From IMG/VR virus record IMGVR_UViG_3300043570_002836, positions 32,512-96,511 of that record: a DNA stretch of 64,000 nucleotides; one strand, written 5' to 3'. The notes below the pieces were generated by a model. That model searched no databases. It saw nothing but the letters and a program-made list of their open reading frames with translations, and was not told the DNA's origin. This stretch comes from a virus. Made by a program: the position numbers and the translations under genes. This document shows positions 23,858 through 29,490 of the stretch, in pieces; the stretch's first letter is position 1; each line of letters starts with the position of its first letter.

Positions 23858-23932
23858 TGGAGACAGTGGGAATCAAACCCACCCCACGGTGAATGCAAAT
23901 CACCATCGCCAAGTCTTGGAACATTTGCCCCC
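23858..23932 (-). tRNA. tRNA-Ala(TGC)
   Basis: GGTGA-TTTGCAT-TCACC; G3:U70; T-loop TTTGATT. Confidence 0.88.
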
Positions 23933-23942
23933 ATTTTATTTG

Positions 23943-24015
23943 AGCGGGTGGAGGTAATCGAAACCTCGTCCTTAGATTGGAAGTCTAATATAATAAGCCA
24001 CTATACGACACCCGC
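23943..24015 (-). tRNA. tRNA-Gly(TCC)
   Basis: TTAGA-CTTCCAA-TCTAA. Confidence 0.9.
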
Positions 24016-24101
24016 AAATTTGGGTAGAATCAGACGCGTTCTGTCTACCGAGACCTCATCGTTAATGAATTACTTCATCAGAGCGTACTGAGACACTATT
24101 G

Positions 24102-24181
24102 TGAACCTGGAGGGAGTCGAACCCTCAACCATATGGACTTCGGCTTAAACGAAGCGTGTTTACCAATTTCACCACAGGTCC
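24102..24181 (-). tRNA. tRNA-Leu(TAA)
   Basis: CTTCG-TTTAAGC-CGAAG; variable arm present. Confidence 0.9.
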
Positions 24182-24187
24182 ATTTTG

Positions 24188-24260
24188 TAGTCCTATCAGG
24201 ATTCGAACCTGAATCAAAGAGGTAGAAGCTCTTTATGTTAATCCCTTACACCATAGAACC
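24188..24260 (-). tRNA. tRNA-Arg(TCT)
   Basis: AAGAG-CTTCTAC-CTCTT. Confidence 0.9.
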
Positions 24261-24269
24261 AAATTGTTG

Positions 24270-24341
24270 AGGGCTGGGGGAATTTCGAAATCCCGACCTT
24301 TCGATTAACAGTCGAAGGCTCTTCCTCTGAGCTACCAACCC
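24270..24341 (-). tRNA. tRNA-Asn(GTT)
   Basis: TTCGA-CTGTTAA-TCGAA. Confidence 0.9.
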
Positions 24342-24355
24342 TTATATTTGTTTTG

Positions 24356-24428
24356 AGGTCTCTAACGGATTCGAACCGTTATCCCTGGGTTACAAAGCCA
24401 GAATAATAAGCCATTATACTAAGAGACC
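24356..24428 (-). tRNA. tRNA-Thr(TGT)
   Basis: CTGGC-TTTGTAA-CCCAG (C31:C39 mismatch). Confidence 0.82.
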
Positions 24429-24431
24429 AAT

Positions 24432-24647
24432 TTGTGATTACTCCTTGGGTGTTTCATCACATTTACGTGAATGGAGTGGCCAAACTCACTAACAACACGG
24501 ACATTAGTTTTTAACAAAATAACTATCGTCAAAAATCGTCAGTTTTTATCAACCAAAACTGAATAAACGGACTGTCGTATTTGTTAACACTATTTAAGTG
24601 CGTGTTACCTACGTTCACAATCAGAACCCTACTTGTTTACACTCCCG
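24432..24647 (-). ncRNA. Putative long irregular hairpin ncRNA between tRNA-Asp and tRNA-Thr
   Basis: Nested pairings GGAGTG/CACTCC, AACACG/CGTGTT, TTAACAAA/TTTGTTAA, TCAGTTTT/AAAACTGA. Confidence 0.45.
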
Positions 24648-24719
24648 CGGTCTATGAGAGAATCGAACTCTCAGCACATCCGTGACAGGGATGTATGTTA
24701 ACCATTACACTAATAGACC
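24648..24719 (-). tRNA. tRNA-Asp(GTC)
   Basis: CATCC-CTGTCAC-GGATG. Confidence 0.9.
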
Positions 24720-24724
24720 TTTAG

Positions 24725-24795
24725 TAGCGGATTCAGGACTCGAACCTGGCCTCGGGGTTATGAGCCCCACGTGCTACCATTTACACTAAACCGCG
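24725..24795 (-). tRNA. tRNA-fMet(CAT), initiator
   Basis: TGGGG-CTCATAA-CCCCG (consecutive G-C pairs) and C1:U72 mismatch. Confidence 0.88.
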
Positions 24796-24800
24796 ATGTG

Positions 24801-24872
24801 TATTCCCACGGAGAATCGAACTCCGATTTTATGGATGAAAACCATAGGTCCTAACCGTTAGACGATGGGAAC
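24801..24872 (-). tRNA. tRNA-Glu(TTC)
   Basis: TATGG-TTTTCAT-CCATA. Confidence 0.9.
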
Positions 24873-24939
24873 GTTTAATTGTCTTACAAATCTAAGTATT
24901 TACTTTTGATTATACAAGACCTTTTTAATTTTTTTTCTG

Positions 24940-25013
24940 TGGTCCAGATAGGATTCGAACCTATGACCTTCGCTTTATGAGAGCGCCGCTCTAACCACCT
25001 GAGCTACAGAACC
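24940..25013 (-). tRNA. tRNA-CAT, probably Ile2 (lysidine, reads ATA)
   Basis: GCGCT-CTCATAA-AGCGA; Ile2 inferred from the ATA codon in the array's leader peptide. Confidence 0.8.
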
Positions 25014-25018
25014 TTATG

Positions 25019-25091
25019 TACCCCCAACAGGATTCGAACCTGTAAAAAATAGTTCCTAAAACTATCGTGTCTACCTTTCCACCATAGGGGC
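25019..25091 (-). tRNA. tRNA-Leu(TAG) with short variable loop
   Basis: ATAGT-TTTAGGA-ACTAT; variable region only TTTTT. Confidence 0.8.
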
Positions 25092-25183
25092 GTTTACTTC
25101 TATTCCAATACGTCAATGAACTCTTGTTCTGTTTTGTCTGACAAATCTAATACTTTTATTTTGATTTGCCAAACTTAGGTCAT

Positions 25184-25215
25184 AAAAAAAACCCCTCTCT
25201 TTTGGAGAAGGGTTT
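25184..25215 (-). terminator. Attenuator terminator upstream of tRNA array A
   Basis: AAACCCTTCTC-CAAAA-GAGAGGGGTTT followed by a U-tract. Confidence 0.85.
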
Positions 25216-25247
25216 CATTTAAATTTTATCTTAATGAATTAACACAC

Positions 25248-27648: not shown

Positions 27649-27722
27649 TCGGAATGGTAGGGTTCGAACCTACGACCTTTCACGTATCAGGCGAATGCTC
27701 TAACCAACTGAGCTACATTCCG
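27649..27722 (-). tRNA. tRNA-Ile(GAT)
   Basis: TTCGC-CTGATAC-GTGAA. Confidence 0.92.
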
Positions 27723-27729
27723 TTATTTT

Positions 27730-27804
27730 TGGTCGGGGTAGCAGGTGTCGAACCTGCCGCCTCTTGGTCCCAAACCAAGCGTCTCTCCCCAAGACTATAC
27801 CCCG
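27730..27804 (-). tRNA. tRNA-Pro(TGG)
   Basis: CTTGG-TTTGGGA-CCAAG; CCA encoded. Confidence 0.9.
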
Positions 27805-28200
27805 TTATTTTGTTTTTAAGATATCCCCCAACTTCTTTACACGATTTTTGAAAGTTGTGTTGTAGAACTTTTCAAAATCTTGTTTAAGGTAGTTGAATCT
27901 GATATCACACCCATTTTTTAATTCTTTGTATGTGGAACCCCAATTCATCCCATCATTTACCATATCAATAACCAAGATTCCTACAGATAAGTTAGTAACA
28001 TTCCCAACCCATATTGATATCTTCAATTCAGGGTTATATAAACCTCTACCATAAGATTCACCTCTTGGGTCAATAACAAAACCTCTTTTTTTGAACTCAT
28101 CTAAAATGAAAGTTACCATTTCAGGTTTTAAACCTGATTGAATAGATTTAATCTCGTTATTTAATCCTTGAACTTTAGTTATTTTGTCTGTAGTTGTCAT
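27805..28200 (-). CDS. Hypothetical protein inside tRNA array B
   Basis: 131-aa ORF with its own TAGATTTG promoter (28229-28236); stop abuts tRNA-Pro. Confidence 0.65.
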   Translation of the reverse strand: MTTTDKITKVQGLNNEIKSIQSGLKPEMVTFILDEFKKRGFVIDPRGESYGRGLYNPELKISIWVGNVTNLSVGILVIDMVNDGMNWGSTYKELKNGCDIRFNYLKQDFEKFYNTTFKNRVKKLGDILKTK

Positions 28201-28280
28201 ATGTATGGGTTTATCGTTGTTTGTCTTACAAATCTACGAAATCATTTCCATTCTCACAACACTTTTGTTATTTTTTTTTG

Positions 28281-28350
28281 TACCGAGTATGGGTTTCGAA
28301 CCCACTTGACCATCCTTATGAGAGATAGTTCTTTTCCTTTAAGCCTCGGT
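28281..28350 (-). tRNA. Atypical tRNA-CAT (probably elongator Met) with shortened D-arm region
   Basis: TATCT-CTCATAA-GGATG; T-arm GTGGG-TTCGAAA-CCCAT; acceptor ACCGAG/CTCGGT. Confidence 0.65.
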
Positions 28351-28357
28351 GTTTCTG

Positions 28358-28445
28358 CGGAAGATGTAGGGTTCGAACCTACGCATCATATTTCAGACCT
28401 ACTTGTTTAGCAAACAAGCCTCTTTACCGATTTGAGTAATCTTCC
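28358..28445 (-). tRNA. tRNA-Ser(GCT)
   Basis: CTTGT-TTGCTAA-ACAAG; long variable arm. Confidence 0.9.
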
Positions 28446-28485
28446 AAATTATACCGACCTAGCTCGGTATCACACATCGGATACG

Positions 28486-28557
28486 TAGTCCCCCAAGGAC
28501 TCGAACCTTGACAATAACATCCGTAGTGTTAAGTGCTATCCATTACACCAAGGAACC
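28486..28557 (-). tRNA. tRNA-Arg(ACG)
   Basis: TAACA-CTACGGA-TGTTA. Confidence 0.9.
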
Positions 28558-28613
28558 AAATTATTAGGTCAGGACCTAATAATCACTCATTATTAGGTTT
28601 TAACCTTATATTG

Positions 28614-28688
28614 GGAGTATAGTGAGATTTGAACTCACCCTATTATCACCACAAAATAACGTGCTCAACCACTGACACTATATACTCC
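28614..28688 (-). tRNA. tRNA-His(GTG)
   Basis: TTATT-TTGTGGT-GATAA; G-1:C73. Confidence 0.88.
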
Positions 28689-28766
28689 ATAAAAACCCCA
28701 CTTCATCAGCTTAACGGACTGACTGCCATATCGGAGGTGGGGGTATCCTGTTAATTCAGGACCTCG

Positions 28767-28839
28767 TGGGACAGGAGAGAATCGAACTCTCATTGCTTGT
28801 TCTTCAAACAAGTGCCTTGACCAACTTGGCAACTGACCC
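28767..28839 (-). tRNA. tRNA-Phe(GAA)
   Basis: CTTGT-TTGAAGA-ACAAG. Confidence 0.88.
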
Positions 28840-28848
28840 AATTTATTG

Positions 28849-28921
28849 TTGTCCCACAAGGGTTCGAACCTCGACTCTTCTGTACCAAAAACAGACGTGT
28901 TGCCAATTACACTATAGGACA
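28849..28921 (-). tRNA. tRNA-Gln(TTG)
   Basis: TCTGT-TTTTGGT-ACAGA; U1-A72. Confidence 0.9.
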
Positions 28922-28927
28922 GTGAGA

Positions 28928-29053
28928 TTACTTTTGTAATCTTTTTAATAATTTTTTAATTAACTTAAATTTGATTTTAATCCCTTTAGGTTCTTGTCTC
29001 AAAAACACTCGACTTGATTCGAATGTTCCTGTTAATACTTCTTTTCTTTTCAT
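28928..29053 (-). CDS. Small basic peptide (41 aa)
   Basis: MKRKEVLTGTFESSRVFLRQEPKGIKIKFKLIKKLLKRLQK, read by hand. Confidence 0.35.
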   Translation of the reverse strand: MKRKEVLTGTFESSRVFLRQEPKGIKIKFKLIKKLLKRLQK

Positions 29054-29072
29054 AATTTATTTTTCTTTTTTG

Positions 29073-29155
29073 CGGAAGACAGAGGAATCGAACCCCTAAA
29101 GCTTTTACACCCAGCTGATTTCAAGTCAGTGTCCTCGTCCATTCGGGCGCCTTCC
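29073..29155 (-). tRNA. tRNA-Ser(TGA)
   Basis: ACTGA-CTTGAAA-TCAGC; long variable arm. Confidence 0.9.
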
Positions 29156-29243
29156 GTATTTTTATCTTTACCAATATGTCAAAGAACTTTTCATTTTACA
29201 AAGTTACATTTTTTATTTTGTAACTTCCTAATTTTTATTCCAT

Positions 29244-29274
29244 AAAAAAACCCCCGAACTTTTGGTTCAGGGGT
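29244..29274 (-). terminator. Attenuator terminator upstream of tRNA array B
   Basis: ACCCCTGAAC-CAAAA-GTTCGGGGGT followed by a U-tract. Confidence 0.85.
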
Positions 29275-29300
29275 CTTACTAAATTAATATACGTTTATAT

Positions 29301-29420
29301 TTAACTTAATATGTTTTCTGAACCATATGACATGCTAAACCACATCGGATACGATACGCAACAAACGCGAATCTGTTTCGATGGACTTACTTGTTTAATA
29401 TGTTGTTCAGTTGCTCTCAT
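29301..29420 (-). CDS. Putative leader peptide of tRNA array B (MRATEQHIKQVSPSKQIRVCCVSYPMWFSMSYGSENILS)
   Basis: 39-codon ORF behind a TAAATTTG promoter box (29447-29454); codons 6-32 match the array B anticodons; contains TGGTTCAG, complementary to the terminator 5' arm. Confidence 0.82.
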   Translation of the reverse strand: MRATEQHIKQVSPSKQIRVCCVSYPMWFSMSYGSENILS

Positions 29421-29490
29421 TTTTTTTATTCTTTAATATATATCTACAAATTTAGTAAAAGTTTGTTGAATGTCAATGTTTTTTTAAATT

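Follow-up and report, generated by a model that had tools for sequence, protein, structure and literature searches.

The question raised by the locus studied here is how a phage controls two blocks of tRNA genes, arrays A and B, when each of them lies behind a short open reading frame (ORF) and an intrinsic terminator. The stretch analysed, termed the window, comprises 64,000 nucleotides (nt; positions 32,512 to 96,511) of the IMG/VR record IMGVR_UViG_3300043570_002836, a 96.5-kb viral contig with a CheckV completeness of 33% and a GC content of 31.5%. It belongs to a Bacteroidota-type phage of lake water, and DNA near-identical to the window is present in many lake-water metagenomes. Judging from sequence, it is likely, with strong comparative support, that each tRNA block is placed under a ribosome-mediated transcription attenuator of the trp/his type, with a leader ORF whose codons match the tRNAs of its own block, and the block is probably made only when ribosomes read the leader codons slowly. 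The layout, the covariation of leader codons with array content, the frame specificity and position of the codon signal, and the alternative pairing with its own covariation were all computed directly.

In the proposed mechanism, a promoter would start a short transcript with an ORF of 22–39 codons, the middle of which would serve as a list of codons for every tRNA species of the downstream block, while a segment made up of the final codons would be able to pair with the 5' arm of an intrinsic terminator starting 21–38 nt past the stop codon. When decoding is fast, the ribosome would reach the stop codon and mask this segment, the terminator would form and the polymerase would stop before the tRNAs. 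When any of the listed aminoacyl-tRNAs is scarce, the ribosome would stall in the middle of the ORF, and the free segment would pair with the terminator arm and allow read-through. The polymerase would then pass a boxA-like element of the host rrn type and transcribe the array, and the new phage tRNAs would relieve the stall, closing a feedback loop. In the window, a second promoter past each terminator would supply a basal level of tRNA.

The features of the two units, all on the minus strand, are as follows, beginning with unit B.

29449–29476, minus strand: promoter of leader B, TTGACA, 16 nt, TAAATT; 10 of 12 consensus matches, conserved in relatives.
29301–29420, minus strand: leader B ORF, 39 codons and TAA, MRATEQHIKQVSPSKQIRVCCVSYPMWFSMSYGSENILS.
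29405–29410, minus strand: segment 1, CUGAAC, codons 4–6; pairs with segment 2 in the full-length minimum free energy (MFE) fold as an anti-antiterminator, and is seen in the clade of the window only.
29325–29405, minus strand: putative sensor core of leader B, codons 6–32; 27 codons, array-B codon families or ATG only.
29318–29325, minus strand: segment 2, antiterminator strand B, UGGUUCAG, codons 32–35; pairing partner CUGAACCA in the 5' arm and loop of the terminator.
29244–29276, minus strand: terminator B, AGACCCCUGAAC, CAAAA loop, GUUCGGGGGUUU and a U run; 9-bp core of -15.3 kcal/mol.
29199–29206, minus strand: secondary -7 box past terminator B, TAACTTTG.
29171–29187, minus strand: boxA-like element of array B, GTTCTTTGACATATTGG, immediately before the first tRNA (Ser).
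25953–29155, minus strand: array B, Ser-TGA, Gln, Phe, His, Arg-ACG, Ser-GCT, a questionable CAT-like element, Pro, Ile-GAT, Lys, Val, Cys, Trp, Tyr, Tyr.
25337–25364, minus strand: promoter of leader A, TTGAAC, 16 nt, TATATT; conserved in relatives.
25248–25316, minus strand: leader A ORF, 22 codons and TAG, MQNLNNILLNARTEGDNPCVSE.
25266–25310, minus strand: putative sensor core of leader A, codons 3–17; 15 codons, array-A families or ATA only, covering all 9 elongator families and ATA.
25247–25254, minus strand: antiterminator strand A, GGAGUAGG (GGAGAAGG in relatives); overlaps the stop codon; pairing partner CCUUCUCC in the 5' arm of the terminator.
25184–25216, minus strand: terminator A, GAAACCCUUCUC, CAAAA loop, GAGAGGGGUUUU and a U run.
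25142–25173, minus strand: secondary promoter past terminator A, -33 TTTG and -7 TAGATTTG.
25105–25121, minus strand: boxA-like element of array A, GTTCATTGACGTATTGG, before tRNA-Leu(TAG).
23858–25091, minus strand: array A, Leu-TAG, Ile2, Glu, Met/fMet-CAT, Asp, Thr, Asn, Arg-TCT, Leu-TAA, Gly, Ala.

The original prediction had proposed that both arrays share one upstream layout of promoter, short ORF, terminator with a CAAAA loop and complementary segment at the ORF end, and all of these parts were located where it had placed them, including the two terminators (29276-29244 and 25216-25184) and the segments complementary to their 5' arms (UGGUUCAG at 29325-29318 and GGAGUAGG at 25254-25247). 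Its further claim that the core of each ORF uses only codons of its own array and covers the elongator set of that array was borne out by runs of 27 codons in leader B and 15 codons in leader A, and Arg and Ile are split by isoacceptor between the two arrays as it had described. The TAAATT of the leader B promoter falls within a -7 box of the Bacteroidota type, TAAATTTG (29454-29447), the end of which lies 27 nt before the ATG. Terminator B was found with RNAfold and a custom hairpin finder; a simple promoter and terminator scan lists terminator A only.

Codons of the window were assigned to a class according to the array that holds the decoding tRNA, with ATG and ATA set aside. Leader B then reads as xAAAA, 27 B-type codons and a mixed tail, and leader A as xB, 15 A-type codons and BBBBA. 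No other B-only run in the six frames of the 64 kb is as long as that in leader B, the runner-up having 21 codons, and the core of this leader covers all 13 codon families of array B (14 anticodon types if the unconfirmed CAT element is counted for ATG). Given the codon usage of the window, the chance of such a run is at most 3.3e-7, which multiplied by 0.007 for 13 of 13 families gives approximately 2e-9. The corresponding values for leader A are at most 3.2e-4 for the run and 0.031 for 9 of 9 families, or approximately 1e-5, and its 15-codon run is equalled or exceeded only in an acidic low-complexity repeat at 6.9–7.4 kb. This repeat (6900–7400), the sole rival to leader A for A-only runs, reads EMGDEDMDMDMEDD… on the minus strand (EMGDEDMDMD…) and GAGAGAGT… on the plus strand. 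The off-array codons at the two ends of leader B are accounted for by the pairing segments which its head (codons 4–6) and its tail carry.

The relatives of the window allowed leader and array to be compared as both changed. Three IMG/VR contigs (L002-L004) encode relatives, 68% identical, of the 888-amino acid (aa) protein that lies upstream of leader B in the window; in these contigs both leaders are present and the arrays are syntenic with those of the window except for a tRNA-Asn in array B, which is unique to this clade. The leader B ORF is conserved in the closer relatives L016-L022, and five protein clusters of leader B homologues, 79–95% identical, were found; in L004, the peptide is only 30% identical to that of the window, compared to 68% for the flanking 888-aa protein, and both cores still use families of their own array only. 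The L004 core (KHMINFKQSQIVISCNRNWYPSMSY) contains three Asn codons, and none occurs in the core of the window or of its seven closer relatives (L016-L022). The 6-bp antiterminator helix differs as well, from GUUCAG:CUGAAC in the window to GUCCGA:UCGGAC in L004, which amounts to three compensatory double changes: the terminator 5' arm went from CUGAAC to UCGGAC and the ORF segment from GUUCAG to GUCCGA, with the 3' arm unchanged. An exact 18-mer of leader A matched only in the L003/L004 contigs, and a blastn search of GenBank phages for distant relatives returned tRNA-level matches only.

A wider family was reached through the 17-mer that precedes the first tRNA (GTTCWTTGACATATTGG), which matched more than 116 IMG/VR contigs and lies approximately 10 nt before a tRNA in most array-bearing loci, the order and content of the arrays varying widely. 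Units were collected from approximately 120 IMG/VR phage contigs and the window by rules blind to codon composition: tRNAs were called with ARAGORN, a terminator was a hairpin with a U run, the leader was the longest ATG-initiated ORF ending at most 90 nt upstream of the hairpin, and the array consisted of the same-strand tRNAs up to the next leader. This yielded 62 leader–array units, 33 of which were non-redundant after greedy clustering (leader identity < 50%). The short ORFs thus collected, of 18–51 codons and situated behind promoters, persist in related phages across at least 33 diverged leader families.

Leaders were scored over 22 codon families (Met and ATA left out) in the 27 of the 33 units with arrays serving 4–18 families. 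Leaders covered 0.944 of the families of their own array, compared to 0.778 when arrays were shuffled (z 7.0); phi was 0.359 against 0.057 (z 6.8), and precision, the share of leader codons in array families, was 0.593 against 0.472 (z 7.0), with none of 20,000 shuffles reaching the observed value in any of the three measures. Coverage was complete in 20 of the 27 units. Together with the Asn codons of the L004 leader B, this shuffle test upholds the expectation that leader codon content tracks array content. Windows of equal length from genes of the same loci gave a phi of 0.006, and within its own locus the leader ranked in the top 5% in 16 of 25 cases, so that the match does not stem from phage-wide codon usage. 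The five other reading frames of the leader DNA gave phi values of -0.02 to 0.05, and the leader–array signal is a decoding signal present in the ORF frame only. Within the ORF, enrichment for own-array codons peaked in the middle and was absent from the first 3 and last 6 codons across units, as would be expected if only stalls upstream of the antiterminator mattered. The third codon position was G in 17.8% of codons in leader middles, compared to 8.6% in genes. At the level of isoacceptors, Arg and Leu codons matched the own array in 34 cases and failed to in 15 (23.1 matches expected, p = 0.0013), with Ser excluded post hoc; ARAGORN often misses Ser-TGA in the surveyed phages, and Ser was dropped after the result had been seen.

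These comparisons bear on two explanations other than a leader-peptide attenuator. One is that the short ORFs are independent small peptide genes, that the arrays run on their own promoters and that the codon match is a product of chance or of codon usage. In its favour, each of the ORFs in the window has a promoter and a strong terminator, the arrays there have a promoter past the terminator, and one such ORF is annotated as a hypothetical protein in GenBank. However, the peptides share little sequence (30% identity) but retain their composition, the match to the own array exceeds that to shuffled arrays and that of genes of the same phage, most units lack a promoter past the terminator, and the terminator arm co-varies with the ORF end, so that we regard this explanation as very improbable. 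An equally improbable alternative is an untranslated RNA element, be it T-box-like, a sponge pairing with tRNA anticodons or a processed small RNA. The leader regions are indeed structured, and in leader A one stretch (GCGAGAACGGAGGGGGAC) shows nucleotide conservation that extends to synonymous sites. The array match is, however, confined to the ATG-initiated frame, where it follows codon families, the signal lies where a ribosome footprint model would place it, and no T-box or other Rfam family was hit; for the T-box model specifically, there was no hit at E ≤ 0.1 in 22500–30500. Chance, peptide-gene and untranslated-RNA readings were rejected on the shuffle test, the gene windows from the same phages and the frame test.

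Attenuation further calls for a segment at the ORF end that competes for the terminator. The surveyed terminators are GC-rich hairpins with U runs that start 21–38 nt after the stop codon, and in 25 of the 33 units the ORF contains a segment complementary to the terminator 5' arm with z < -1.64 against dinucleotide shuffles (mean z -2.4), usually within its last 3–9 codons. ORF ends paired with their own terminator arm at -11.9 kcal/mol and with arms taken from other units at -7.6; among the 33 arms, the own one ranked first in 14 units and in the top three in 23, which none of 20,000 permutations reached. In leader B, the antiterminator (UGGUUCAG:CUGAACCA) forms in the MFE fold once the terminator 3' arm is left out, and the full-length fold and the fold without this arm together give the 1:2, 2:3 and 3:4 set of pairings. 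The close relative L016, with an identical segment 2, gave a z of -3.1 for the antiterminator pairing, and leader A of L019 gave -16.2 kcal/mol and a z of -4.1. Computation and covariation thus both point to an antiterminator that would exclude the terminator and that is placed where a terminating ribosome could mask it. A different candidate for the antiterminator of leader A, GGAGGGGG (codons Glu-Gly), was dropped, since close relatives have GGAGGGAG there, whereas GGAGAAGG pairs perfectly.

The TAG of leader A (25248-25250) is AAG in all relatives, whose ORF is three codons longer (…EKVC) with an end corresponding to TAA 25241-25239. Past the TAG, the window continues in frame with GTG TGT TAA. 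The TAG is either a recent truncating mutation or, if the phage suppresses TAG, not a stop at all.

As to where transcription of the arrays can begin, the original prediction had cautioned that promoter boxes lie downstream of both terminators. Such boxes are present in the window (TAACTTTG for array B; TTTG with TAGATTTG for array A), but they are not general, as the TAnnTTTG box was found in 11 of the 33 units. The gap between terminator and first tRNA measures 10–50 nt in many units; it is 35 nt for leader B of L004, which has no -7 box there and from which a segment of approximately 50 nt with TAACTTTG is missing. In most related units, no way into the array other than through the attenuator is thus visible. 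Contigs of four lake-water metatranscriptome runs covered both leaders and bridged both terminators at a depth of 2–7, in data where transcript ends are invisible and DNA carry-over is possible.

A boxA-like element follows the hairpin in 20 of the 33 units. The 17-mer GTTCWTTGACATATTGG resembles the E. coli boxA, TGCTCTTTAACAA, and the identical motif occurs in more than 120 Bacteroidota genomes. At the one bacterial locus that was read (Polaribacter, L146), it is situated after the spacer tRNA-Ala and approximately 150 nt before the 23S rRNA, as opposed to the 16S, a placement which is, by position, that of an rrn spacer boxA. The phages appear to borrow this host rRNA antitermination signal downstream of the attenuator. 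In two contigs, L030 and L038, an atypical Ala-TGC-like tRNA lies between the leader terminator and boxA, as in the host rrn spacer order of tRNA-Ala, boxA and 23S, and such a spacer, once captured, may have given rise to the phage units.

The frequency of this element, together with the fact that tRNA precursors need processing, could suggest that leader translation controls the processing or stability of the precursor, or the loading of a boxA complex, and that the hairpin is mainly a processing or stability element. This we consider unlikely, since the hairpins carry canonical U runs and since mutually exclusive pairing with the ORF end is the layout of classical attenuation.

Several observations weigh against attenuation of the arrays by their leaders. 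We infer both translation of the ORFs and read-through caused by stalling from the nucleotide sequences, and additional tRNA would be useless where a stall is due to a lack of amino acid rather than of tRNA. Each array of the window has its own good promoter past the terminator, so that attenuation there would at most add to basal expression. Leader A of the window is atypical, with TAG in place of AAG and a weak antiterminator that pairs at only 7 of 8 positions, and its MFE fold holds the antiterminator segment in another hairpin with codons 6–8. Across the family, precision was moderate (0.59 of leader codons in own-array families), units L058, L129 and L070, as parsed, fit poorly, and the isoacceptor test was not significant when Arg, Leu and Ser were taken together (62 matching against 44, p = 0.08).

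If the arrays are attenuated in this manner, the next question is what the leaders sense. We infer that the leaders normally respond to a drop in tRNA supply, which could result from host shut-off, from a mismatch in codon usage or from a tRNA-cleaving defence. A more specific possibility is that the same attenuator acts as a counter-defence sensor, in which an anticodon nuclease of the PrrC, RloC or PARIS AriB type cleaves one tRNA and the stalled leader induces the replacement array. Almost all tRNA species are represented in the leaders, many of them by a single codon, which suits the detection of the loss of any one of them, and two reports describe phage tRNAs that rescue infection from tRNA-cleaving defences (PMC10264068, PMC11464382). 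No link of the units to a defence system was present in the window or its relatives, however, and plain supply-and-demand feedback fits the design equally well. The counter-defence role is possible rather than probable, and a host anticodon nuclease as the trigger is speculation. The proposal that the leaders scan the host tRNA pool, rather than the total tRNA supply, is unsupported.

Attenuation of the tRNA arrays by their leaders can be placed next to several known systems. As in the leaders of amino-acid operons (trpL, hisL, leuL and pheL of E. coli and Salmonella, as well as thrL and ilvGMEDA), a promoter-proximal short ORF rich in the relevant codons stands before an intrinsic terminator, and a ribosome at the stop codon would mask the antiterminator strand. 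The ilv and thr leaders are multivalent and sense several aminoacyl-tRNAs. In contrast to these operons, the regulated genes are here tRNAs instead of enzymes, the leaders list up to 13–20 codon families, mostly once or twice and matched to the array, and the units are borne by Bacteroidota-type phages with an rrn-type boxA after the attenuator. T-box riboswitches likewise answer to tRNA status by transcription attenuation through a terminator/antiterminator switch. No ribosome takes part in a T-box, where the RNA itself binds a single uncharged tRNA, and the genes controlled are synthetase or amino-acid genes; the signal of the phage leaders, by contrast, is frame-specific and involves multiple codons. 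The likeness to the rrn boxA, the NusB/NusE site, lies in the motif itself, which is the same in the host rRNA operon spacer and in the phage tRNA units, where it would act downstream of the attenuator.

An accessory array of similar size, approximately 26 tRNA genes, is the trn operon of Anabaena sp. PCC 7120, which stays silent until an impairment of translation induces it (PMC8421152, PMC10272220). Unlike the phage arrays, it is cellular and controlled by the repressor TrcR at its promoter, and the same papers make no mention of an attenuator, leader or terminator.

A full-text literature search returned no description of leader-peptide attenuation of tRNA genes. Ribosome-mediated attenuation is in itself known; what is new is its application to tRNA genes, through a leader in which the codon families of the array are listed. 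It seems likely that the units represent a widespread and undescribed class of phage regulators, namely multivalent leader attenuators that would read the decoding speed of all codon families served by an array and turn the array on when any of these tRNAs is short.

The purpose and control of phage tRNA genes have been debated for decades, and a sensor of this kind, if true, would mean that phages monitor tRNA supply codon by codon. A mechanism known from textbooks would thereby reach a new class of genes, and the phage would gain a self-correcting tRNA supply, possibly with an automatic answer to tRNA-cleaving host defences. Each leader would then be a natural list of the codons that the phage treats as limiting, and such short, portable sequences could find use as reporters of tRNA availability. 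Direct testing is within reach in cultured Cellulophaga phage–host pairs, as the same layout is present in phages of Cellulophaga baltica, phi4:1 and phi38:1 among them, and was found in phi17:2_18 and phi40:1 with the following leaders.

Cellulophaga phage phi17:2_18, first leader: MKIQRLHLQELEQPIISGGTGV, before Pro, Glu, Gln, His, Leu, Leu, Arg and further tRNAs.
Cellulophaga phage phi17:2_18, second leader: MKTNYCTYNNSNWSFSY…, before Tyr, Ser, Asn, Trp and Phe.
Cellulophaga phage phi40:1, leader: MKTIMNIATDIRTKGVK…, before Lys, Ile, Gly, Met, Asp, Thr, Val, Arg and further tRNAs.

With regard to the tRNA inventory itself, 25 of the 26 clustered tRNAs counted in the original prediction are supported, while a third CAT-like element (approximately 28345-28275) is doubtful: it has no D arm, matches the syntenic CAT tRNA of L016 at 46 of 73 bases and remains unconfirmed. 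ARAGORN and Rfam each called 23 tRNAs in the window, over the range 28921-23942. Ser-TGA (29155-29072) was called by ARAGORN under relaxed settings only and gave a weak Sec-like hit with Rfam, and Ala (23928-23857), called by neither, shares 67 of 74 bases with a syntenic tRNA-Ala that ARAGORN called in the relative L019. The first CAT tRNA of array A (Ile2), with anticodon CAT in the window, is Ile-TAT in relatives, which confirms it as the reader of ATA.

Array B is not purely composed of tRNAs, as four protein ORFs of 41, 131, 135 and 164 aa lie between them. A lysine-rich ORF of 41–45 aa between tRNA-Ser(TGA) and tRNA-Gln is conserved in both clades (28928-29053 of the window, minus strand; 11292-11429 of L004) and had no Pfam match. 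Between array B and leader A, the minus strand encodes an ORF of 185 aa (25382-25939) of the DOT1 methyltransferase family (Pfam PF08123, E = 2e-16), for which a search of viral contigs gave no relatives; the L004 clade has a different gene at this place. The gene position suggests that the product is an RNA or tRNA methyltransferase.

Past the 3' end of array A, below tRNA-Ala, a tRNA-like element on the minus strand (23538-23643) combines class-II-like D and T arms and an A-T acceptor stem with a long hairpin (CATACAT…ATGTATG) in place of a normal anticodon arm; neither ARAGORN, relaxed settings included, nor Rfam called it. Finally, within the gap between tRNA-Asp and tRNA-Thr (24429-24646), positions 24475-24625 gave no Rfam hit and were recovered as a 151-nt contig in each of two lake-water RNA libraries at a depth of 80–92, compared to 2–7 for the adjoining stretches, and may represent an abundant small structured RNA inside array A.

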